Shown piece by piece: positions 7,102-46,648 of a stretch of 64,000 nucleotides of DNA (position 1 is the first letter of the stretch; the number at the start of each line of letters is the position of its first letter). The notes under the pieces were generated by a model. That model ran no database searches. It worked only from the letters and a program-made list of their open reading frames with translations, and was not told the origin of the DNA. Origin of the DNA: an uncultured Chryseobacterium sp. (GTDB lineage Bacteria > Bacteroidota > Bacteroidia > Flavobacteriales_F > PHOS-HE28); the NCBI GenBank assembly GCA_964394425.1, contig CAYMXP010000002.1:13828-77827 (forward strand), written 5' to 3'. The translations under genes and the position numbers were made by a program.

Positions 7102-7548
7102 ATGGACTTCTTTTTCGAATGGCACTGGTGGGCGGGCGCGGCGCTGGTGCTGCTGATCGCCGAGATCTTCGTGCCGGGCTTCTTCCTGCTCTGCCTGGGC
7201 ATCGGTTGCGCGGGCGGCAGCGTGGCGGCCTGGGCCGGTGCCGGCGAGGGCGGCCAGCTGATCGCCTTCAGCATCGTGGCGCTCATCTCCTTCTTCACCA
7301 TCCGCCCGCTGTTGATGAAGAAGTTCTGGAAGGACGGCGGCACCAGGACCAACGTGGACGCGCTGCTGGGCCGCCGCGCGAAGGTGACGCAGGATTTCGA
7401 GCCCTCCCTGCGCCTGGGCCGCGTGGCCATCGACGGCGACGACTGGCGCGCCGAATGCACCACCGACCGCGCGCTGCGCCAGGGCGACATCGTCGAGATC
7501 GTCCGCGTGGACAGCAACACCCTGATCGTGAAACCCATCGAGCCCTGA
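7102..7548 (+). CDS. NfeD-family membrane protein, the usual partner of SPFH/stomatin proteins.
   Basis: Two N-terminal TM helices followed by a C-terminal OB-fold-like segment 'LGRRAKVTQDFEPSLRLGRVAIDGDDWRAECTTDRALRQGDIVEIVRVDSNTLIVKPI'. Immediately upstream of an SPFH gene. Confidence 0.75.
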   Translation: MDFFFEWHWWAGAALVLLIAEIFVPGFFLLCLGIGCAGGSVAAWAGAGEGGQLIAFSIVALISFFTIRPLLMKKFWKDGGTRTNVDALLGRRAKVTQDFEPSLRLGRVAIDGDDWRAECTTDRALRQGDIVEIVRVDSNTLIVKPIEP

Positions 7549-7568
7549 TCGATCGCGGATCGAACCGC

Positions 7569-7665
7569 CAACTGCGAACTGCCAACCGCCAACTGCCAAC
7601 TGCAAACTGCAAACTGCAAACTGCCAACTGCCAACTGCCAACTGCCAACTGCCAACTGCCAACTC
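7569..7665. repeat. Heptanucleotide tandem repeat of ~13 units (AACTGCC, with AACTGCA/AACTGCG/AACCGCC variants) between the NfeD stop and the SPFH start codon.
   Basis: Sequence: caactgcg aactgcc aaccgcc aactgcc aactgca x3 aactgcc x5 aactcc, ending 3 nt before the ATG at 7669. Confidence 0.9.
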
Positions 7666-7668
7666 CTC

Positions 7669-8667
7669 ATGAGCCCCTCCACCATCATCCTCGTCCTCCT
7701 CGCGCTCTTCGTCATCTTCATCATCGCCAAGGGCCTGCGCATCATCCAGCAGAGCGAAGCCATGGTGATCGAGCGCCTGGGCAAATACCACAAGACGCTG
7801 CAGCCGGGCATCAACATCATCATCCCCATCGTGGACAAGCCGCGGGAGATCGTCTTCCGCTTCACGCGCGACCTGCCCGACGGCAACAAGTACGTGCAGT
7901 TCCTGCGCAAGGAGCGGCTCGACCTGCGCGAAACGGTCTACGACTTCCCCCGCCAGAACGTGATCACCAAGGACAACGTGATGACGGAGATCAACGCCCT
8001 GCTCTACTTCCAGATCACCGACCCGGTGAAGGCGATGTACGAGATCGAGAACCTGCCCCTGGCCATCGAGAAGCTCACGCAGACCACCCTGCGCAACGTG
8101 ATCGGCGAACTGGACCTCGACGAGACCCTTACCAGCCGCGACACGATCAACATGAAGCTGCGGCAGATCCTGGACGAGGCCAGCAACAAATGGGGCGTGA
8201 AGGTGAACCGCGTGGAACTGCAGGACATCAACCCCCCGCGCGACATCCGCGAGGCGATGGAGAAGCAGATGCGCGCCGAACGCGACCGCCGCGCGCAGAT
8301 CATCGACGCCGAAGGCGGCAAGCGCGCCCAGATCCTGCAGGCCGAGGGCATCCAGCAGGCGCAGATCACCCAGGCCGAGGGCCAGAAACAATCGCAGATC
8401 CTGGAGGCCGAGGGCGACGCGCAGGCCCGCATCCGCCGCGCGCAAGGTGAGGCGGAGGCCATCACGCTGGTCACCAAGGCCATCACGGGAGGCAGGAGCG
8501 ATCCGTCCAGCTACCTCATCGCCATGAAGTACCTGGAGACCCTCAAGGAGATGACCAGCGGCAAGGACAACAAGGTGATCTACATCCCCTACGAAGCCAC
8601 CGGCGTGCTCAGCAGCGTGGGCGGGATCAAGGACATGCTGGACGCGGGGCGGGCGATGAACAAGTGA
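7669..8667 (+). CDS. SPFH/Band-7 (stomatin/HflC-like) protein with a C-terminal coiled-coil of repeats.
   Basis: N-terminal TM segment, then the SPFH core 'IIQQSEAMVIERLGKYHKTLQPGINIIIPIVDK…FPRQNVITKDNVMTEINALLYFQITDPVKAMYEI'. C-terminal repeats 'AQIIDAEGGKRAQILQAEGIQQAQITQAEGQKQSQILEAEG'. Confidence 0.9.
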   Translation: MSPSTIILVLLALFVIFIIAKGLRIIQQSEAMVIERLGKYHKTLQPGINIIIPIVDKPREIVFRFTRDLPDGNKYVQFLRKERLDLRETVYDFPRQNVITKDNVMTEINALLYFQITDPVKAMYEIENLPLAIEKLTQTTLRNVIGELDLDETLTSRDTINMKLRQILDEASNKWGVKVNRVELQDINPPRDIREAMEKQMRAERDRRAQIIDAEGGKRAQILQAEGIQQAQITQAEGQKQSQILEAEGDAQARIRRAQGEAEAITLVTKAITGGRSDPSSYLIAMKYLETLKEMTSGKDNKVIYIPYEATGVLSSVGGIKDMLDAGRAMNK

Positions 8668-8761: not shown

Positions 8762-9064
8762 ATGCCCAGCTACGACACCCTTTCGCAGGCCGTGAACGCC
8801 CTGCGCCGCCGCGGATACACCGACGACCTCTCGCTCAAGGACCATTGCGTGGTGTGCGGCGGAAAGAAGACCGAGCTGCACCCGGAGGATTTCCACATCG
8901 ACGAGTTCCACCGCTTCGAAGGCGACAGCGATCCGGCGGACGAGGCCATCGTGTACGCCATCAGCGCGCCGAAGCATGGCATCAGGGGTGTGCTGGTGAA
9001 CGGCTATGGGCCCAGTGCATCAAGCCTCACCCAGGCGATGGTGGCCAAGCTGGCGACGCATTAG
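8762..9064 (+). CDS. Small conserved hypothetical protein (~100 aa); cytoplasmic and Cys-containing.
   Basis: ORF 'MPSYDTLSQAVNALRRRGYTDDLSLKDHCVVCGGKKTELHPEDFHIDEFHRFEGDSDPADEAIVYAISAPKHGIRGVLVNGYG'. Start uncertain: an in-frame GTG at 8726 is the alternative. Confidence 0.45.
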   Translation: MPSYDTLSQAVNALRRRGYTDDLSLKDHCVVCGGKKTELHPEDFHIDEFHRFEGDSDPADEAIVYAISAPKHGIRGVLVNGYGPSASSLTQAMVAKLATH

Positions 9065-9268
9065 AGGCTTTCCCGACAATGTCCTTCGGGCTGCGCGAAG
9101 CCCTTCGCAGCCATGCTTCGTCGCAGCAAGCTTCACGGAGCGACCGGCCATGCTCGGTTCCCGCGCCTTGCCTGGTCGCGCAACACCTCCGGATCGATCC
9201 CAAAAGATGTTGAGGTAACCCCGAGCAATGGGGTCGCTTCGGCGGCTATTTTGCGGGGCCGATCCTCA

Positions 9269-12200
9269 ATGGAACATACCGACCCCAAGGAACCACCGCG
9301 CATCGCCATGAGCGATCGCATGATCGTCGAGCAGTTCAAACGGAACTGCCCCGGTTGGACCGCCGACCAGGTCATTGAACGCTTCCGGCTTGGCCGCTTG
9401 GAGCATGAGCTGGCCGTTCTGGATGCATTCCCCGATGGGCGGGAGAACGCCCGCGTGAAGTGCATGGTGCTGGCTGCACCAGGCGATGCCAGGCCCATGG
9501 GAGCGGATGATGCCGGGCTGATCCGTGGCGTTGCCCAATGGGAAGGGCTGAACGCGGAAGAGAGCGAACACCTCGTTTCCCAATGGAAAACCATCGTGGA
9601 ACGGTTAGGGGTCGGAACATGGCACCCCCGACCTCCATCCATGACCCCGGCGTTGCCCATGCGCGACGTGGACTTCGAGGTACAGGAGGGTCTGGAGATC
9701 ATGAAGGAGCTCGACCAACGCGGTTGGCCGATGGAAAAGAGCGTGATCCGTGTGGGCCGGTTGAGCTTCTACAACCACTTCCGCCTGCTGGAGGTCGTCG
9801 ATCATGCCGCGGGATCCCGGGGATACGCCTTGTATCGCAAGAGCGATGGAGGGCTGGACCTGCGGCCGCTGGATGGCCGCTCTGCCGTGCTTCACGATGC
9901 GAACGGGGTGCCCGGCGAACTGGATCTGGGAGACCTCGAAAAGCAGACCGACTACCTGCGCTTCTTCTGCTGGGCGGTGGATGGCGGGGAGTCAGCCTTC
10001 CTGCTGCCGTCCAGTCCGTGGGAACTGCCGCTGCAACTCGATGCGGACCACAAAGCCATCGAGCAGGTGGTGCCCGAGGGGTGGAGGAAAGAGATGCAGG
10101 CCGTCGCGGGGATCCGTGCCGTGCAGGATGAAGAGGCCGCCACACACAAGTATGCACGGGACGGAGAGGGCCACGACCGGGGCCGCCTGGCCGCTCACGT
10201 CGCCTATGGCACCGCCTTGTTCAAGGGTTGGTTCAAGCTGGAGAAGAACGGCGAGGTGAGCATGGTGGACGACCAGCCCCTGGTGGCCAACCTGCCCATG
10301 AGGATCGAGCGCTTCGGCCATGGTCGTGTCACGATCATCGGACCGAGGCTGCCCAAGGAAGTGCTCGATCCCTACGGAGCGGACCGGGATGCCTTCAAGA
10401 CCGCGGCACCGGCGACGAACAGTGGCCCCGCGTTGATCGCTGAACTGGCCGACCCGGAGCGGGGTCCGCTCGTGGTGCGCGAGCCGGTGAGGATCGACCT
10501 GGCGACCATGCGCGAATGGAGTTCGCGCGAATTGCCCATATCGAACGTCCGGTTCGAGAATACCATGCGACTTTGTTCGCTGGCCACCGGTTGCCGGCTG
10601 AAGTTCATCAACTGCGTATTCGAACAAGGGATCGATGCGCGTCTGGCCACGCTCGATGGCGAGGTGCATCTGGAACGGTGCGACCTGGGGCGCATATCCA
10701 CTGAGCGCTCCGCTGCCCTGGACTGTACCGAAGCGGAAGTGACCCACTCACTGGTTTGCGTGGATTGCCACCTGGGTGGTGGCCTGGCCGGGCACAACCT
10801 GATGGTGGGCAGCGACCTGCGCATACGGGGGTGCCATGTGGGCGGGGAGTTGAGGAATGGTGGATCGGACGACCGCCGCATGCGCCATTGGAACGCGCGT
10901 GATCAGGCCCGTAACAGGGACCGCGCGGCAAGCACCCAGGCGTCCAGCGCGGAGGTCGTTCTCTCCGGGGCGGAGGTCGGTGGATCGCTCGAACTGTGCT
11001 TCCACGGCGGCGGTCAAGCCGACATCGCCCTGGTGTGCCTCGGAGGCCTCGTGGCCGAAGGGTGCGTGGTGCGCGGGGATCTGTCCCTGGAAGGAAGCGT
11101 GTGGCTCGGCGGGCTCGCTCTCAACGGGTGCCGGATCGATGGCGATCTGGTCATGTCGCAGGCCTGGGGAGGAAGGGGCGATTGGAGGTCGGGCCTGGTG
11201 GGCAAGGAACACCTGGCTCTCTGCAATGCGGAGGTGAATGGCAACGTGATCATCGGGTCATGCGACATCGGCGCGAACATCGATCTCAACGGCTTGCGCG
11301 CCCAAGGCGTAATGGACCTCTGCGGCACCCGATGCGACAATGACCTCATTCTGTCCTTTGCCCGGATCAAGGGCTGGATGCGATCGTTCCGGTACCATGG
11401 CGATGAACTGGGCGGAAGAAGCCCGCTATCCATCGGCGGGGAACTGGTTCTGTCGGCGGCCCACATCGGTTACGTGGAATTGCGCGGCCTCACGGTGAAG
11501 AGGAACGTGACCGTGCGCACGGGGCAGTTCGGGCGGTTCATCCTCGGTCCCAGCCCCATGCCGCGAAAGGACAAGGTGCTTGGCATCGAGCGCGGCAGCG
11601 TGGGCGGGTTGTTGATGCGCGGGGTGATGGTCGACGAGGTGGTGGATCTCACCGCCATCAGGGTGAAAAGCTCGCGCGAGGGCGTGGTGAACGAGCAGAA
11701 CCGGCGGGATGAAGAAGGCCAGATGGCCATCAGCTATTGCCGCATCGGCGCCGATCTGCTGCTGTTCCAGCCCGATCTCGCCCAGGTCATCCTTCGCCGT
11801 TGGGACCCCGACAGCCCCTCGGGGGCCTGGATCTGGGACGAGCGCGTGGTGGATGGCACGACACAGAAGCTCCAACCCGGGATCCTTCGAATGGAGATCG
11901 AGAGCGACCTTGACCTTCAAGCCAGCAACGTGGGCGGGAAGCTGGACCTGCGCAACGCGACCGTGGGCGGCAGCATCTGGATGAACGACATGAGCGTGAC
12001 CCTCGACGTTCACATGGGTCACGAGGGAAACCCGCCCTACGGGCATCCGACCCTGTGGGCCGAGGGCCTGCGAACGACCTGCCGCATGATCGATCTTGAG
12101 AAGATCGAATGCCGGGGCGATGTGTTCATGACGGGGCTGGAAGCGACCGGCCCGGCCAAGGACGGCTCCATCGTGAAAGCACGTGAAGCGATGGTGCGCG

Positions 12201-13366
12201 GCGAATTGTTGCTGATGGAAAAGCAAACGGGCGACGAGGTCGCGAAAGCCCTGATCCATGGCCGGGTGGACCTGGCCGCCGCGCGCATCAACCACCTCAT
12301 CATCGGGCGCGATAATTTCCCGCTGCACGATCAGCCGGACCGATGCGGCGTGAACCTGGAACGCGCCACCATTCACCGCCTGGAGGTGCGCAAGCCCGTG
12401 CCTGGTCCGCTGGACCTGCGCGGCGTGGCCGTGCATCAATGGGAGGTCGAAGAGGGATCGGCCGATCAGATCGCGGTGTTGGAGAACATGCATCCCTTCG
12501 ATCGCAGCGTATGGATCGGTGTGGAACGGAACCTGCGCAACGAAGGGCGTGACGCTGAGGCCAACCGGATGTACCGCGCCATGTTGAGGGCCGGTAAGTC
12601 GACCTCCATCGGCCGCCGGTTCCACACCCGTGAGGAACTCCTGGGCGGACTGGGGGTGATGGCGCTGCTGGTGCTGTTGCTCGCGGTCAATTTCAGCCTT
12701 GGATCCTGGCCGGTGCTAATCGCCCTGGTGCTCTTCATTCTGGGGTCCTTCATGATCCGCGCCCTGGGGAAGGGCACGCAAAAACGGTGGCGCAAGCGGA
12801 TCGAAAGCCTGGGCAGGCGCATCGTGGGCGCCAAGGGGGTCCGCTGGGCCGGCATCGGCTGGCATGGCTTCGTTGGCCTGCCCACCGACCACGGCACGCG
12901 CATCTGGAGGCCCATGGTGCTGTGGGTGATCTTGCTATTCCCTTCCTTCTGGATCTTCAACGACCCTCGGAACGTGGAACTGGAGTTGGGCGCGCGGGTG
13001 GTGCGCGTGGCCGATGGCCGTGTGGTGGGATCCGCTGATCCGTTCGTACATATGGATCTTTCGGAAGACCTGGCCGATGATCGCTTCCGGCTGGTGGAAT
13101 TGGGCCGCGACGAAGTGGCCCCCCTGCGTGGCCAGGACTGGTCGCCCGCCGACGCCGCGTTCCTGGTGTTGCGCTATCAGGTGCCGATCCTTGACCTGGC
13201 CTTCCATACGCCCTGGACGGCCGGCCAGGATCCGATCACGCTGGCCGGGGTGGGATCCTTCACCCCCGAGCAATGGGCCTTGTTCGTGAAGGTCTACAGC
13301 TTCATCGCCTGGTCGTTGCTGCTGATCGGTCTGTCGGTGCGGGTCTTCAGGGGCAAACAGGGGTGA
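9269..13366 (+). CDS. Very large (1365 aa) hypothetical membrane protein. It has an N-terminal soluble domain (~470 aa), a central Cys/Gly/Asp-rich beta-solenoid-like repeat region (~450 aa), and a C-terminal region with 3-4 TM helices.
   Basis: Continuous ORF with no recognisable catalytic motif. Central periodic repeats: 'RCDLGRIS…LVCVDCHLGGGLAGHNLMVGSDLRIRGCHVGGEL…LELCFHGGGQADIALVCLGGLVAEGCVVRGDLSLEGSVWLGGLALNGCRIDGDL…LALCNAEVNGNVIIGSCDIGANIDLNGL'. Hydrophobic helices 'GVMALLVLLLAVNFSLGSWPVLIALVLFILGSFMI', 'MVLWVILLFPSFWIF', 'VYSFIAWSLLLIGLSV'. Start set at the ATG at 9269 (MEHTDP); the ORF-track start at 9113 is an upstream in-frame extension. Confidence 0.6.
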   Translation: MEHTDPKEPPRIAMSDRMIVEQFKRNCPGWTADQVIERFRLGRLEHELAVLDAFPDGRENARVKCMVLAAPGDARPMGADDAGLIRGVAQWEGLNAEESEHLVSQWKTIVERLGVGTWHPRPPSMTPALPMRDVDFEVQEGLEIMKELDQRGWPMEKSVIRVGRLSFYNHFRLLEVVDHAAGSRGYALYRKSDGGLDLRPLDGRSAVLHDANGVPGELDLGDLEKQTDYLRFFCWAVDGGESAFLLPSSPWELPLQLDADHKAIEQVVPEGWRKEMQAVAGIRAVQDEEAATHKYARDGEGHDRGRLAAHVAYGTALFKGWFKLEKNGEVSMVDDQPLVANLPMRIERFGHGRVTIIGPRLPKEVLDPYGADRDAFKTAAPATNSGPALIAELADPERGPLVVREPVRIDLATMREWSSRELPISNVRFENTMRLCSLATGCRLKFINCVFEQGIDARLATLDGEVHLERCDLGRISTERSAALDCTEAEVTHSLVCVDCHLGGGLAGHNLMVGSDLRIRGCHVGGELRNGGSDDRRMRHWNARDQARNRDRAASTQASSAEVVLSGAEVGGSLELCFHGGGQADIALVCLGGLVAEGCVVRGDLSLEGSVWLGGLALNGCRIDGDLVMSQAWGGRGDWRSGLVGKEHLALCNAEVNGNVIIGSCDIGANIDLNGLRAQGVMDLCGTRCDNDLILSFARIKGWMRSFRYHGDELGGRSPLSIGGELVLSAAHIGYVELRGLTVKRNVTVRTGQFGRFILGPSPMPRKDKVLGIERGSVGGLLMRGVMVDEVVDLTAIRVKSSREGVVNEQNRRDEEGQMAISYCRIGADLLLFQPDLAQVILRRWDPDSPSGAWIWDERVVDGTTQKLQPGILRMEIESDLDLQASNVGGKLDLRNATVGGSIWMNDMSVTLDVHMGHEGNPPYGHPTLWAEGLRTTCRMIDLEKIECRGDVFMTGLEATGPAKDGSIVKAREAMVRGELLLMEKQTGDEVAKALIHGRVDLAAARINHLIIGRDNFPLHDQPDRCGVNLERATIHRLEVRKPVPGPLDLRGVAVHQWEVEEGSADQIAVLENMHPFDRSVWIGVERNLRNEGRDAEANRMYRAMLRAGKSTSIGRRFHTREELLGGLGVMALLVLLLAVNFSLGSWPVLIALVLFILGSFMIRALGKGTQKRWRKRIESLGRRIVGAKGVRWAGIGWHGFVGLPTDHGTRIWRPMVLWVILLFPSFWIFNDPRNVELELGARVVRVADGRVVGSADPFVHMDLSEDLADDRFRLVELGRDEVAPLRGQDWSPADAAFLVLRYQVPILDLAFHTPWTAGQDPITLAGVGSFTPEQWALFVKVYSFIAWSLLLIGLSVRVFRGKQG

Positions 13367-42744: not shown

Positions 42745-44576
42745 GGCTTCGCCGTCAGATCGCCGCGCAGCAGGTGGCCGTTGAATTGCTGGATGGCGGC
42801 TTTCAACCAGGGCTCCATGTCCCGCGTGGGCGCGTCGGCCGCGGTCGCCGGTGGTGGAAGCACATGCTCGCCATCGAACTTCAACTGCCGCCGGCCGCTG
42901 CCGATCGCCATGTAGATGCTGTTGCTCGAGCTGATCGCGATCGGTGGACGATCAGCCTGAAGCACGCTGTGCCCGAAGCTGAAGAAGCGCCCGTGGTGGC
43001 CGATCAGATGGAGCACCGTGGGAAGGATGTCGATGTGCTGCACCACGCGATCGTCCGCACCGGGTTCGATGCGCTCCGGCATGTAGAAGAGCAGCGGCAC
43101 CCAGTAGTCACGTTCGTCGCGGACCAGCTGCCCGTCGCGCTTCAGGTCGGCCGTGTGGTCGGCGGTGATCACGAACAGTGTGTTGCGGAACCACTTCGAG
43201 CCGCGAACCGTCGCGAAGAACCGTCGCAGGGCATCATCCGCGTATCGCAGGGTGGGTTCGATCCGGTGATCGCCGCCGGCGAAGCGGGCCGCCACGGGGT
43301 CGGGAAGCTTGTAGGGGTGATGCGAGGTGAGCGTGAACAACGTGCTGAAGAAGGGCTGTTGTTCCTTCTGGAGTTCCTGCGCGAAGAATTGCAGGAAGGG
43401 CCGGTCGAGGACGCCCCAGGTGCCGTCGTCGTCCGACCGGTCCGGGTATTCATCGTAGCCCACGTAGCGTTCGATGCCCGCCTGCCGCGCGAAACCATCG
43501 AAGCCCATCGTGCCGTTGTGCCCGCCGTGGTAGAAGCTGGTGCGATACCCCTCTTCCTTCAGCACGCCTGGCAACGAGGTGAAGGGCAGTTGCGCATAGC
43601 GCGATGCGACGAACGCCTCGTTCATGAGTTCCGGCAGCGAAGCGAGGATCGCCGGCAGGCCATCGATGCTCCGTCGGCCGTTCGCATAGGCATGCTCGAA
43701 ATTGAGCCCGGTGCCCATCAACGAGTCGAGGAAAGGCATGCACCTGCCCGCGTGGCCGGACAGCCGTTCGCTGTACGCAGCGGAAAAACTCTCCAGGATG
43801 ATCACCACCACGTTGGGTCGTGCGCCGGCGATCGCGCTGTCGGCGAACTGGTGGATGACCGGCCACAGGCGATCGGCTTCCTCCTGGCTCATGTAATGCC
43901 TTTCCGACAGGGCCGGCTTGCCCAGGCCGTGGAAGAACGTGAAGGCCGAGTTAAGGACCAGGGGTGAATACGCCGCATCGGCGTAGCGCGTGGCGGTCGC
44001 CGGGCCGATGGGCACCAGCTGAAGTCCGCCGCGCCATAGCACGGCCATCAACGCGACGACCATGGCGCGCCAGGACCACCGCCGCCAGCCGGCCGCCGCG
44101 CCCGTTGCACGGCCGCTCCAACGCCAGAGCAGCTCGGCGAGCACGAGGCAGGCGATGAAGATCGCGGCGACATGCCAGAACTCGACAAGGAACCCCCCGG
44201 CCAGGTGCCGCAGGTCCGTGCCCGCCGTGCCGATGGTGAGCAGGTCGCTGGTGCTGCGCTTGAGCGTGAACCTGTAGTATTCGATGTCGACGGCGTTGAG
44301 AAAGAAGCCGATCGCGTTGCCCAGGTGGAAGAGCGGGCGTTGCGTGACCGCGGCCCATCGCGAGGGGGATGGCCACATCAGAAAAAGCGTGATCCACGGG
44401 ATGTTCAGCCAGGCGATGGCCACCAGGTCGAACCTCATCCCGCCGAGGAATGCGCTGAACGGCGCGGAGGGGAAGCTGTCCTGGTTGAGCGCCCAGAACG
44501 CCAGCCGGAGCAGCGAATGGATCAGGGCCAGCCCGGCCAGGCGTGCGAGCACTACGGACAATGGACCGCGCAGCAT
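42741..44576 (-). CDS. LTA-synthase/sulfatase-family membrane-anchored phosphotransferase (LtaS/OpgB-like, alkaline-phosphatase superfamily).
   Basis: N-terminal TM helices, then 'RPNVVVIILESFSAAYSERLS' and 'NTLFVITADH'. Start ambiguous: 44576 vs 44642. Its stop overlaps the DAGK start. Confidence 0.75.
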   Translation of the reverse strand: MLRGPLSVVLARLAGLALIHSLLRLAFWALNQDSFPSAPFSAFLGGMRFDLVAIAWLNIPWITLFLMWPSPSRWAAVTQRPLFHLGNAIGFFLNAVDIEYYRFTLKRSTSDLLTIGTAGTDLRHLAGGFLVEFWHVAAIFIACLVLAELLWRWSGRATGAAAGWRRWSWRAMVVALMAVLWRGGLQLVPIGPATATRYADAAYSPLVLNSAFTFFHGLGKPALSERHYMSQEEADRLWPVIHQFADSAIAGARPNVVVIILESFSAAYSERLSGHAGRCMPFLDSLMGTGLNFEHAYANGRRSIDGLPAILASLPELMNEAFVASRYAQLPFTSLPGVLKEEGYRTSFYHGGHNGTMGFDGFARQAGIERYVGYDEYPDRSDDDGTWGVLDRPFLQFFAQELQKEQQPFFSTLFTLTSHHPYKLPDPVAARFAGGDHRIEPTLRYADDALRRFFATVRGSKWFRNTLFVITADHTADLKRDGQLVRDERDYWVPLLFYMPERIEPGADDRVVQHIDILPTVLHLIGHHGRFFSFGHSVLQADRPPIAISSSNSIYMAIGSGRRQLKFDGEHVLPPPATAADAPTRDMEPWLKAAIQQFNGHLLRGDLTAKP

Positions 44577-44632
44577 CACGGCGAAGATGGCGCGAACACG
44601 GCCAACGGCCTCCCTGTACTTTCGCGGCCGCG

Positions 44633-46648
44633 ATGCCCACACTGACCACCGAGGACCTCCAGACGCGCTTCCAGAAGGGGAACCTCACCGACGCCTTCCT
44701 GTTGAAGACCCATGAGCTTCTCGTCCGTCCGCGGATGATCGAGGAGAAGATGCTCAGCCTGCTGCGGCAAGGCAAGATCAGCAAGTGGTTCAGCGGCATC
44801 GGGCAGGAGGCCATCAGCGTGGGCGCGGCCATGGTGCTGCGCGACGACGAGTACATCCTGCCCATGCACCGCAACCTGGGCGTGTTCACCACGCGCGGCA
44901 TGCCCTTCACCAGGCTCTTCGCGCAATGGCAGGGCAAGGCCACCGGCTTCAGCAAGGGCCGCGAGCGCAGCTTCCACTTCGGCAGCAAGGAGCACCGGGT
45001 GGTGGGCATGATCAGCCACCTCGGCCCGCAGATGGGCATCGCCGACGGCATCGCGCTGGCGCACAAGATGAAGAAGGAGGCCCGCTGCACGATCGTCTTC
45101 ACCGGCGACGGCGCCACCAGCGAGGGCGACTTCCACGAGAGCGTGAACGTGGCCGCGGTGTGGGACCTGCCCGTGCTTTTCATCATCGAGAACAACGGCT
45201 ATGGCCTCAGCACGCCCAGCCGGGAGCAGTTCCGCATGAGGAGCTTCGTGGACAAGGCCGTGGGTTACGGGATCGAAGGCGTGCAGGTCGCCGGCAACAA
45301 CATCCTGGAGGTGTACAACACCCTGGCGAAGCTGGCCGATCGCGTGCGCGAGAACCCGCGGCCGGTCCTGGTGGAGTGCGTCACCTTCCGCATGCGCGGG
45401 CACGAGGAGGCCAGCGGCACCAAATACGTGCCCAAGGAATTGTTCGAGGAGTGGGGGAGGAAGGACCCCGTGGTGAATTATGAGAACTGGCTGTTGAAAG
45501 AGGGCGTTCTCAGCGAGAAGGTGAAGGGCGATGTCCGCGACGCGATCAAGCAGGAGATCGAGGAGGGGCTGAAGGTGGCCTTCGATGAGCCGGAACCGGT
45601 GCCGGTGAAGGAGGTGGAGGAGGGGGATGTGTATGCGCCACAAGCTTCAGGCTTCAAGCCTCAAGCTTCAAACCCGACGGTGCGGAAGAGCGAGAAACGT
45701 TTCATCGACGCGATCAGCGACGGCATGGCGCAGAGCATGGAGCGTCACCCGAACCTCGTGCTCATGGGCCAGGACATCGCGGAGTACGGCGGGGCCTTCA
45801 AGATCACCGAGGGTTTCGTGGAGCGCTTCGGGAAGGAGCGCGTGCGGAACACGCCGCTGTGCGAGAGCGCGATCATCGGCGCGGGGCTCGGCCTCAGCAT
45901 CAAGGGCATGAAGGCGATGGTGGAGATGCAGTTCGCCGACTTCGTGAGCGAGGGCATGACCCAGATCTGCAACAACCTGGCGAAAATGCACTACCGCTGG
46001 GGGCAGAACGCCGACGTGGTGGTGCGCATGCCCACCGGCGCGGGCGTGGGCGCGGGGCCCTTCCACAGCCAGAGCAACGAGATGTGGTTCGTGAAAACGC
46101 CGGGCCTGAAAGTGGTCTACCCCGCGACCGTCCACGACGCGAAGGGCCTGCTCATGGCAGCCTTCGACGATCCCAACCCGGTGATCTTCTTCGAACACAA
46201 GGCGCTCTACCGCAGCATCACGGAGAGCATCCCCGACGAGCCCTACACCGTGCCGATCGGCAAGGCGCGCGTGGCGCGTGAGGGCCATGCGATGAGCATC
46301 ATCACCTACGGCATGGGCGTGCACTGGGCGCTGGAAGCCGTGAAGGAGGCCGCCGTGGACGCCGAGATCATCGACCTCCGCACGCTCCTACCCATGGACA
46401 CCGAGGCGATCTACGCCAGCGTGCGCAAGACCGGTCGCGCACTGGTGTTGCACGAGGACACGCTCACGGCCGGTCTGGGCGGCGAGATCAGCGCGTTGAT
46501 CACCGAACATTGTTTCGAAAGCCTCGACGCGCCGGTGATGCGCGTGGCCAGCTGGGATACGCCCGTGCCTTTCGCCATACCGCTGGAGCAGGGCTTTCTG
46601 GCGAAGGGGAGGGTGAAGGAGGCGATCGTCAAGCTGGCGGAGTACTAG
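44633..46648 (+). CDS. Fused alpha-beta 2-oxoacid dehydrogenase E1 component, TPP-dependent.
   Basis: Alpha part 'IVFTGDGATSEGDFHESVNVAAVWDLPVLFIIENNGYGLSTP' (TPP motif GDG…N). Beta part 'RNTPLCESAIIGAGLGLSIKGMKAMVEMQFADF…YTVPIGKARV'. Confidence 0.9.
   Translation: MPTLTTEDLQTRFQKGNLTDAFLLKTHELLVRPRMIEEKMLSLLRQGKISKWFSGIGQEAISVGAAMVLRDDEYILPMHRNLGVFTTRGMPFTRLFAQWQGKATGFSKGRERSFHFGSKEHRVVGMISHLGPQMGIADGIALAHKMKKEARCTIVFTGDGATSEGDFHESVNVAAVWDLPVLFIIENNGYGLSTPSREQFRMRSFVDKAVGYGIEGVQVAGNNILEVYNTLAKLADRVRENPRPVLVECVTFRMRGHEEASGTKYVPKELFEEWGRKDPVVNYENWLLKEGVLSEKVKGDVRDAIKQEIEEGLKVAFDEPEPVPVKEVEEGDVYAPQASGFKPQASNPTVRKSEKRFIDAISDGMAQSMERHPNLVLMGQDIAEYGGAFKITEGFVERFGKERVRNTPLCESAIIGAGLGLSIKGMKAMVEMQFADFVSEGMTQICNNLAKMHYRWGQNADVVVRMPTGAGVGAGPFHSQSNEMWFVKTPGLKVVYPATVHDAKGLLMAAFDDPNPVIFFEHKALYRSITESIPDEPYTVPIGKARVAREGHAMSIITYGMGVHWALEAVKEAAVDAEIIDLRTLLPMDTEAIYASVRKTGRALVLHEDTLTAGLGGEISALITEHCFESLDAPVMRVASWDTPVPFAIPLEQGFLAKGRVKEAIVKLAEY

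Follow-up and report, generated by a model that had tools for sequence, protein, structure and literature searches.

Within a 64,000-nucleotide (nt) stretch of an uncultured Flavobacteriales genome (contig CAYMXP010000002.1; this whole stretch is called the window below), a tandem array of the heptanucleotide AACTGCC fills the space between a gene for an NfeD protein and a gene for an SPFH/Band 7 protein and runs up to the SPFH start codon. On balance, the array is probably a heptanucleotide microsatellite born of replication slippage in the transcribed, Shine-Dalgarno-less leader between the two cistrons, and would do no more than serve as an inert spacer whose length varies. The evidence that carries this reading comes from the anatomy of the array, from alleles that differ in length between strains, from the composition of the same leader in related genomes, and from the occurrence of heptamer arrays of many kinds elsewhere in this genome and in others.

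The array and its alleles

The two cistrons lie on the forward strand. The upstream NfeD gene encodes 148 amino acids (aa) (7102–7548, stop codon TGA at 7546–7548; PF01957, E 1.2e-15) and is also called in the Joint Genome Institute (JGI) record, while the downstream SPFH/Band 7 (stomatin-like) gene encodes 332 aa (7669–8667; PF01145, E 1.5e-41). The 120-nt spacer between them (7549–7668) is filled by the array, which Tandem Repeats Finder delimits at 7563–7664 with a period of 7, 14.6 copies of the consensus AACTGCC, 92% matches, 0 indels and a score of 162. By direct reading, it extends over 7563–7667 as head-to-tail 7-nt units, 14 of them full and one degenerate. The first-pass annotation of this DNA had recognized a real array, and the AACTGCC unit, the three AACTGCA variants, the length of the spacer and the placement relative to the ATG all stand as it described them. 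Its start and its count of ~13 units do not, since the array begins 6 nt earlier and holds the 15 units given here.

The 8 units of the 5′ half (7563–7618) are degenerate and read AACCGCC (7563–7569), AACTGCG (7570–7576), AACTGCC (7577–7583), AACCGCC (7584–7590) and AACTGCC (7591–7597), followed by three copies of AACTGCA (7598–7618). Next comes a pure tract of 6 perfect AACTGCC units (7619–7660), which is the part of the array most prone to slippage, and finally a degenerate last unit, AACTCCT (7661–7667), which with a single C at 7668 forms the junction AACTCCTC to the ATG at 7669. There is no GGAG-like Shine-Dalgarno motif in this junction between the last unit and the ATG, and the junction is similar to the CCAACCCCCTC ending of the spacers of relatives. 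The array stands in sense orientation against the SPFH start codon, its sense strand carrying one G per seven bases, and the spacer as a whole is made up of A.29, C.40, G.17 and T.14.

A two-unit probe allowing up to 2 mismatches gave 14 overlapping matches in the window, all at the array and all on the + strand. Shuffled sequence is expected to give 0.46 matches, and none of 100 shuffles reached 14, so the earlier description of the array as locus-specific holds for the window. With contiguous 7-nt units, no spacers and a length beyond chance, the array is a long simple sequence repeat of the heptanucleotide class. A dispersed element of the repetitive extragenic palindromic (REP) kind, or clustered regularly interspaced short palindromic repeats (CRISPR), can be ruled out, because the array is at a single locus in the window and its units abut without spacers, as had been observed at first pass in setting CRISPR aside. 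The array can also be ruled out as coding sequence: although all six frames are open across it, the SPFH frame lacks an ATG, GTG or TTG there, and orthologs have the same NfeD stop and SPFH start, SPFH orthologs at 77–89% identity beginning at the equivalent ATG.

Contigs of the same or a close lineage were found in Logan assemblies (k = 31) through an exact NfeD protein and an exact downstream 100-aa protein. In two of them (L208/L209), the flanks are 98.4% identical to the window without flank indels and enclose a complete allele of 8 units in a 71-nt spacer, as against 15 units in the window. This allele reads AACCGCC AACTGCG AACCGCC AACCGCC AACTGCC AACCGCC AACTGCA AACCGCCC-ATG. The left and right sides of another allele come from one run (L207 and L220, 97–98% identical to the window); at its beginning, AACCGCC AACTGCG AACTGCG precede at least 4 pure units, and at its end at least 4 pure units lead into AACCCTCCCC-ATG. 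A more distant contig, L206, is 93.5% identical to the window in the NfeD region and 84.6% in the upstream gene and therefore represents a sister lineage; its array opens with AACAGCC AACTGCA AACCGCC AACCGCC and continues into at least 3 pure units. The degenerate half differs in its order of units in L206, L207 and L208.

These differences across strains and a sister lineage show that the array is older than the species and that unit number and unit sequence turn over at a length-variable locus, which is confined to this species and a sister lineage. Variation in copy number, which the first-pass annotation had put forward as something to look for, is therefore present between alleles in nearly identical flanks, and its further statement that such variation would alter the spacing to the SPFH start is borne out, because the distance from the NfeD stop to the SPFH start changes in 7-nt steps as the unit number differs between relatives. 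Within one strain, the degenerate 5′ half is stable across several samples (L203, L205 and L212, 100% identical to the window), which places the instability mainly in the pure tract.

Four contigs from at least four other sequencing runs (L203, L204, L205 and L212) confirm both junctions and the first 12 units without a difference, L203 and L205 for the left part of the array and L212 for the right part. The Logan contigs of this species consistently stop or start within the array, mostly in its pure tract (the 3′ ends of L203, L204, L205, L206, L207 and L209 and the 5′ ends of L212 and L220; L203 and L205 stop, and L212 begins, within the pure tract itself). As a consequence, the locus is split in most short-read assemblies and the copy number is unreadable there. 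A part of the 182,911-bp JGI metagenome contig Ga0131077_10000170 has the same sequence as the window, and the exact number of pure units is the one read from that single contig. The idea that the array is an assembly artefact, or a repeat collapsed or expanded during assembly, has a negligible probability, because even though short-read k = 31 assemblies do break in the pure tract, the independent assemblies reproduce the junctions and first 12 units, and further runs contain distinct alleles.

One contig, L211, is of a different kind. Here, the end of a congeneric NfeD gene is joined through a 3-nt spacer (TGA-ACC-ATG) to SPFH, with an identity to the window of 86% over the left 214 nt, 87% over the next 86 nt and 100% over the remaining 3.5 kb, and with 11 mismatches in 3.6 kb that all fall within the first 75 nt of SPFH. 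L211 has arisen either by recombination at the site of the array or as a chimera of k = 31 assembly, and for this reason it was not counted as an array-less allele of the same species. Since metagenome assemblies at k = 31 are interrupted by such arrays and may join unrelated pieces there, operon structures taken from short contigs at loci of this type need to be read with care.

The NfeD-SPFH leader in related genomes

Among species-representative genomes, the nearest relatives of the SPFH protein are in Flavobacteriales metagenome-assembled genomes, at up to 89% identity. The order of NfeD followed by SPFH is kept in ~40 relatives, and an AACTGCC array was found in none of these ~40 orthologous loci, so that the comparison with orthologous operons proposed at first pass sets this locus apart. 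The spacers of the orthologs are bimodal in length, with 2–5 nt in 14 of 39 and 30–77 nt in most others. A junction of 2–5 nt is the type usually linked to translational coupling. The long spacers average A.24, C.50, G.10 and T.16, against a background at the locus of C.32 and G.30; they are C/A-rich, G-poor and rich in CCAAC motifs, and contain no Shine-Dalgarno-like sequence. Leaders of this type fit what is known of initiation in Bacteroidia, whose ribosomes ignore Shine-Dalgarno sequences and in which mRNA structure and the upstream nucleotides tune initiation (PMC6847099, PMC7797042).

Where the window has its array, two of these orthologous spacers, both ending in ccaaccccctcatc-ATG, have a heptamer in two copies. 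The end of the L003 spacer reads ctccaac-ctccaac-cccctcatc-ATG, i.e., (CTCCAAC)2, and that of L005 reads caccaac-caccaac-cccctcatc-ATG, i.e., (CACCAAC)2. Set in this register, the sequence of the window is (tgccaac)n-tcctc-ATG. The C/A-rich, G-poor leaders of the relatives, with a two-copy NNCCAAC heptamer in these two, may therefore be of the type from which the array arose, in which case it would have grown by replication slippage from a CCAAC-type heptamer in the ancestral leader, and the six-unit pure 3′ tract would be the part that is currently active. Growth in place is favored over horizontal acquisition, because nothing mobile flanks the array and relatives have CCAAC-rich leaders and two-copy heptamers at the same place.

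An array of this composition may be tolerated because its sense strand preserves a G-poor and unfolded leader, as ribosomes of Bacteroidota that do not use Shine-Dalgarno pairing would need. If the two genes are co-transcribed, the array would serve as an inert spacer of variable length that holds the start site open and keeps the SPFH start apart from the NfeD stop. The separation of start from stop would mean that SPFH is initiated independently and not by termination-reinitiation coupling, as could occur at the 2–5 nt spacers. A change in copy number would then be expected to have little or no graded effect and to produce no ON/OFF switching, so that copy number would be functionally neutral.

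Heptamer arrays have also appeared in this spacer in other lineages. In L056, a distant Flavobacteriales locus (SPFH 67% identical, 64% GC), (AACTGAW)6 at 2934–2975 ends 1 nt before the SPFH ATG at 2977, so that the SPFH start codon of this lineage has an independent heptamer array of its own. The region of L056 from the end of the NfeD gene to SPFH (2800–2979) contains three repeat types including this one, and also found there are (CAACCT/CAACCA)x9, which is a PQ repeat in one frame, and a ~45-nt duplication with a GC hairpin. A third lineage is L075, a Bacteroidales gut genome with (ATAGTTA)4.9 at 2906–2939, right after the NfeD stop and ~50 nt upstream of SPFH. In 565 kb of sequence, made up of the window and 80 Bacteroidota SPFH loci, 17 arrays reach 4 or more copies, and no period is as frequent among them as 7, with 8 arrays; the arrays of L056 and L075 are two of those counted. 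Other start-proximal heptamer arrays tend to have a G-poor sense strand as well (10 versus 3, p = 0.09, some of these arrays being interrelated), which is suggestive only as a general rule.

Heptamer arrays in other genomes and possible roles of this one

Heptamers are the most abundant class among long simple sequence repeats with units of 5–11 nt in prokaryotes, and polymerase slippage has been proposed as the cause of their abundance, according to the accounts of Mrazek 2007 given in two later papers (PMC4679880, PMC4692102). As far as those accounts go, the array in the window resembles this class, as well as the GGGAATC repeats of Xanthomonas and the GGGGA(T/C)T repeats of Nostoc, in that period 7 dominates, the arrays are mostly intergenic, a slippage origin has been proposed, and both length and sequence vary extensively from one close relative to another at a given intergenic site. 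The unit in the window has no G runs and cannot therefore form a G-quadruplex, in contrast to the repeats of Xanthomonas and Nostoc, and the host belongs to a different phylum. The short tandemly repeated repetitive (STRR) heptanucleotides of the cyanobacteria Calothrix and Anabaena (cited in PMC4692102) are likewise tandem heptamers in intergenic DNA. The STRR differ in occurring as many dispersed copies per genome in low-GC heterocystous cyanobacteria, whereas the array described here is at a single locus in a member of the Bacteroidota. Their units include CCCCAGT, TTGGTCA and CAACAGT, and several contain ACTG/CAGT, as does the unit in the window.

The closest parallel is with the TAACTGA repeats, intergenic heptamers that precede start codons in Beggiatoaceae, Cyanobacteria and five Bacteroidetes and that form long arrays in the Flavobacteriaceae Gramella forsetii and Aequorivita sublithincola, whose nearest relatives lack them (MacGregor 2015, PMC4679880). 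Shared features are a forward, intergenic direct tandem repeat of 7 nt that ends a few nucleotides from a start codon with no Shine-Dalgarno sequence between array and ATG, a long array in a member of the Flavobacteriales whose closest relatives keep the gene neighborhood with a shorter spacer and no array, strain differences in 7-nt steps, and the AACTG core. The unit itself differs, the host is a 65% GC member of the Flavobacteriales, and the array lies inside an operon between two cistrons. In addition, the 'Maribeggiatoa' genome has a network of 169 repeat sets (PMC4679880), as against one intergenic array in the 64 kb of the window. Since only the AACTG core is shared, we regard the array as the same kind of repeat as TAACTGA but not as a member of the strict TAACTGA family.

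Perfect (AACTGCC)3 was found in at least 120 metagenome contigs ranging from 26% to 71% GC, and because AACTGCC arrays occur at so many unrelated loci and in so many organisms, the array in the window belongs to a general heptamer class and is not a device specific to NfeD-SPFH operons. This divides an expectation stated in the first-pass annotation, that a locus-specific switch would be contradicted if the array were both invariant and present at many unrelated loci: the array is not invariant, but arrays of its unit do occur at many unrelated loci. Among the matches listed, many contigs carry further heptamer arrays with unrelated units, and ~80% of the AACTGCC arrays surveyed do not adjoin a start codon. 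Seventy-five of these arrays, the window excluded, had enough flank on both sides to be scored for an open reading frame (ORF) of at least 100 codons with its ATG within 25 nt downstream; 14 of the 75 had such an ORF in the AACTGCC sense, 2 had one in the opposite sense and none in both (one-sided binomial p = 0.002). The proteins encoded downstream include recognizable enzymes and transporters. Some metagenome loci have mixed arrays of AACTGCC, AACTGAA and AACTGAC.

An inverted companion array, (GGCAGTT)n, is present 14–120 nt upstream of the AACTGCC array in ~25 of the 120 loci listed (e.g., L168 540–625, L192 5428–5501, L128 3294–3374, L133, L132 and ~20 others), and the array and its companion could form a long hairpin. 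In L132, L133, L168 and L192, ORFs diverge from the pair, so that each array faces its own start codon. A probe search of the window found no inverted companion.

The other heptamer arrays on the contigs with AACTGCC (L082–L201, arrays more than 300 nt from any AACTGCC array) have very diverse units, and some of these contigs carry many different heptamer arrays (e.g., 13 in L150 and 7 in L149). The most frequent 4-mer in these units is ACTG/CAGT, found in 14 of 66 where ~3.6 are expected. In viral contigs from IMG/VR (L222–L240, L241–L320), (AACTGCC)3 occurs in 19 and (TAACTGA)3 in 107, and scrambles of (AACTGCC)3 with the same composition occur in 6, 2 and 13. This excess is only modest, too small to make a case for AACTGCC as a special sequence, and motif specificity was dropped on these grounds. 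Heptamer arrays of the AACTGCC/TAACTGA kind are thus also present on phage-like contigs.

The first-pass annotation had suggested that the array might act as an mRNA structure element, or that its length might set the spacing of an internal promoter. Neither suggestion fared well. The predicted fold of the spacer RNA has a z-score of 0.11 with flanks and 0.03 alone, with a nearly unpaired centroid of ~−2 kcal/mol. Rfam gave no match at the gathering score in the whole window and nothing in the spacer at E ≤10, the matches at that level being chance hits to small nucleolar RNA-like families within the SPFH coding sequence, and no terminator-like hairpin was found in the spacer. On these results, a structured cis-regulatory RNA or leader element was rejected. 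A promoter scan for sigma-70-type sites found none in or near the spacer, where other promoter types may remain, and the Bacteroidetes TAnnTTTG motif is absent within kilobases of the array. In a thermodynamic model that joins the 3′ end of NfeD through the spacer to the 5′ end of SPFH, the predicted accessibility of the ATG (mean unpaired probability from −20 to +15) is 0.44 with 0 units, 0.62 with 1 unit and 0.66–0.72 with 2–30 units, compared with 0.54 ± 0.10 for random 98-nt genomic inserts. The idea of a switch loses ground as well, as predicted accessibility is flat from 2 to 30 units and the array stands outside any reading frame.

Several observations weigh against the interpretation of the array as an inert microsatellite. 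A purely passive model does not predict the 14:2 orientation bias of AACTGCC arrays, nor the independent array of AACTGAW x6 that ends 1 nt before the SPFH ATG in L056. Persistence of the array across the sister lineage, whose NfeD region is 6.5% and upstream gene 15% different, could mean that it is maintained by selection. The history of the spacer is also not simple, because the left part of L211, from a closer congener (86% nt identity), has a 3-nt spacer, which weakens the argument from precursor leaders. Finally, the promoter scan was confined to sigma-70-type sites and one Bacteroidetes motif, and the accessibility figures are thermodynamic predictions only.

The alternative that survives best, although we consider it rather unlikely, is that (AACUGCC)n is a sequence-specific platform in the leader, each heptamer taking up one molecule of a protein that binds single-stranded RNA, for example ribosomal protein S1 or a protein with a cold-shock domain. 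With a similarly limited probability, the bound protein would recruit or block ribosomes at the SPFH start, and copy number would set the ratio of NfeD to SPFH translation. Such a platform has been proposed for the TAACTGA repeats, which have the same geometry and for which S1, Csp and CsrA were named as candidate binders (MacGregor 2015, PMC4679880). It would account better than a purely passive model for the orientation bias, with many arrays standing before clearly real genes, and for the recurrence in L056. The AACTG core common to AACTGCC and TAACTGA, the mixed arrays, and the prominence of ACTG among otherwise unrelated heptamer units also point in this direction, as does a Nostoc preprint in which deletion of heptamer repeats affected reporters and which offers the only experimental hints on heptamer function. 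On the other hand, no binding protein is known, the great diversity of units on the same contigs argues for a process driven by length and not by motif, and the viral excess over scrambles is modest. Most of the AACTGCC arrays surveyed are not beside a start codon, ~40 orthologous operons do without an array, and the orientation bias could equally stem from selection against G-rich, structure-forming leaders.

A broader version of this idea, which we find doubtful, would unite the AACTG-core arrays (AACTGCC, AACTGAA, AACTGAC, AACTGGC and TAACTGA) in one widespread, orientation-specific class of non-Shine-Dalgarno 5′ leaders that are read, heptamer by heptamer, by a protein of this type and dialed by slippage in Bacteroidota, Cyanobacteria and other phyla. 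If this were true, copy number would be a heritable dial on the translation of a single cistron, here acting on the NfeD:SPFH ratio, and the array at the SPFH start in L056 would reflect selection and not coincidence.

It is improbable that the array is a contingency locus, a phase-variation rheostat in which unit number reversibly tunes SPFH expression. The models for this would be the hmw1A and hmw2A genes of Haemophilus influenzae, which have 13–38 copies of a heptanucleotide repeat 69–106 bp upstream (PMC2651432), and the AGAT repeats in the 5′ untranslated region (UTR) of Moraxella uspA2, as described in PMC4679880. A comparable tract, (AACAACC)1–7, lies 13 bp ahead of a gene for a TonB-dependent receptor (PMC2651432). 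These repeats are of similar size to the array in the window and lie before a start codon, with copy numbers that differ by strain, and the AACAACC unit shares its C/A-rich composition. In the array, too, unit number differs from strain to strain within one species; it contains a long pure tract, in which slippage comes easily, and lies between an upstream gene and a start codon, as in hmw and uspA2. However, the genes in those cases encode surface or uptake proteins of host-adapted pathogens, the repeats are located in their defined promoters or 5′ UTRs, and copy number has a measured effect on expression, whereas the array in the window is known from sequence and adjoins genes of another class. 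Because it has no reading frame or recognizable promoter elements to act on, SPFH is a housekeeping-type membrane scaffold, and the host is an environmental member of the Flavobacteriales and not a host-adapted pathogen, a contingency switch is unlikely. The gene upstream is NfeD, and no surface antigen, host-interaction or restriction-modification gene adjoins. The predicted accessibility of the ATG, unchanged from 2 to 30 units, would leave copy number with little to tune, several samples of one strain show no difference in the degenerate half, and heptamers inside ordinary enzymes of the same genome argue for a mutational tendency and not for a selected switch.

A role at the level of DNA is more improbable still, whether as direct-repeat sites for a transcription factor or nucleoid protein at an SPFH promoter or as a hotspot of recombination or rearrangement. 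Three units amount to 21 bp, or two helical turns, which would place every third unit on the same face of the helix, and there is a precedent in the Vibrio cholerae ctxAB promoter, which a preprint describes as controlled by TTTTGAT heptad repeats (bioRxiv 10.1101/2021.05.14.444153). A rearrangement role has also been suggested for the long arrays of Flavobacteriaceae (PMC4679880), and the junction between two lineages in L211 falls exactly at the array locus. Against this, no promoter-like motif of the sigma-70 or TAnnTTTG type was found in or beside the array, a role in DNA gives no reason to expect a preferred orientation towards the gene, L211 is perhaps no more than a k = 31 chimera that arose where the repeat interrupts the true assembly path, and no candidate binding protein is encoded beside the array.

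If the array is, as we favor, a slippage-born microsatellite in a tolerant leader, the locus by itself is ordinary, one more heptanucleotide microsatellite in a repeat-prone genome. Heptamer arrays set against start codons are a known but poorly understood class in bacteria, to which the window adds a member and not a new switch. The value of the locus lies in the natural allelic series that it offers for the old question of what such arrays do, with alleles of 8 and 15 units and others in nearly identical backgrounds, array-less relatives with spacers of 2–5 and 30–77 nt, a host phylum without Shine-Dalgarno pairing, and an independent array at SPFH in another lineage.

Other repeats and neighboring genes in the window

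The window (GC ~65%) has one intergenic heptamer array and two coding ones. The first of the coding arrays, (GGTTGTC)4.4 at 1126–1156, is within a minus-strand gene for a DegT/DnrJ/EryC1 aminotransferase (365–1603), where its translation, TDNRQPTTDNQ, forms an in-frame insertion and divides the Pfam match of the enzyme into two stretches; the heptamer repeat has thus been taken into the aminotransferase as a loop. The second, (CAAGCTT)4.4 at 45641–45671, is within a gene for a 701-aa fused E1 dehydrogenase (44543–46648; E1_dh + Transket_pyr + Transketolase_C) and is located in the linker that joins its alpha-like half to its beta-like half (..APQASGFKPQASNP..). By Tandem Repeats Finder, three arrays in the window combine 4 or more copies with a period longer than 2, and each of them has a period of 7; the host genome is heptamer-prone. 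The first-pass annotation had called two unrelated heptamer repeats within 10 kb unusual for a bacterial chromosome; the second array is indeed there, and its presence reflects this tendency of the genome.

The non-repetitive 5′ edge of the NfeD-SPFH spacer is formed by a short inverted repeat on the + strand, TCGATC-GCG-GATCGA (7549–7563), right after the NfeD stop. It contains two GATC sites and is kept in every allele seen, being identical in L203–L209, including the sister lineage L206, and a similar tcgcggatcc is found in L007. Within the SPFH coding sequence, a repeat with a 33-nt period (2.6 copies, 74% matches, 8329–8415) corresponds to a repetitive AEG..Q..I.. segment near the C terminus of the protein. 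The 100-aa protein encoded downstream of SPFH (8762–9064) has no Pfam match. It is followed by a very long ORF (9113–13366), which is listed at 1417 aa and given as 1365 aa in the JGI record, and whose sole Pfam match is a sub-threshold one to a pentapeptide repeat.

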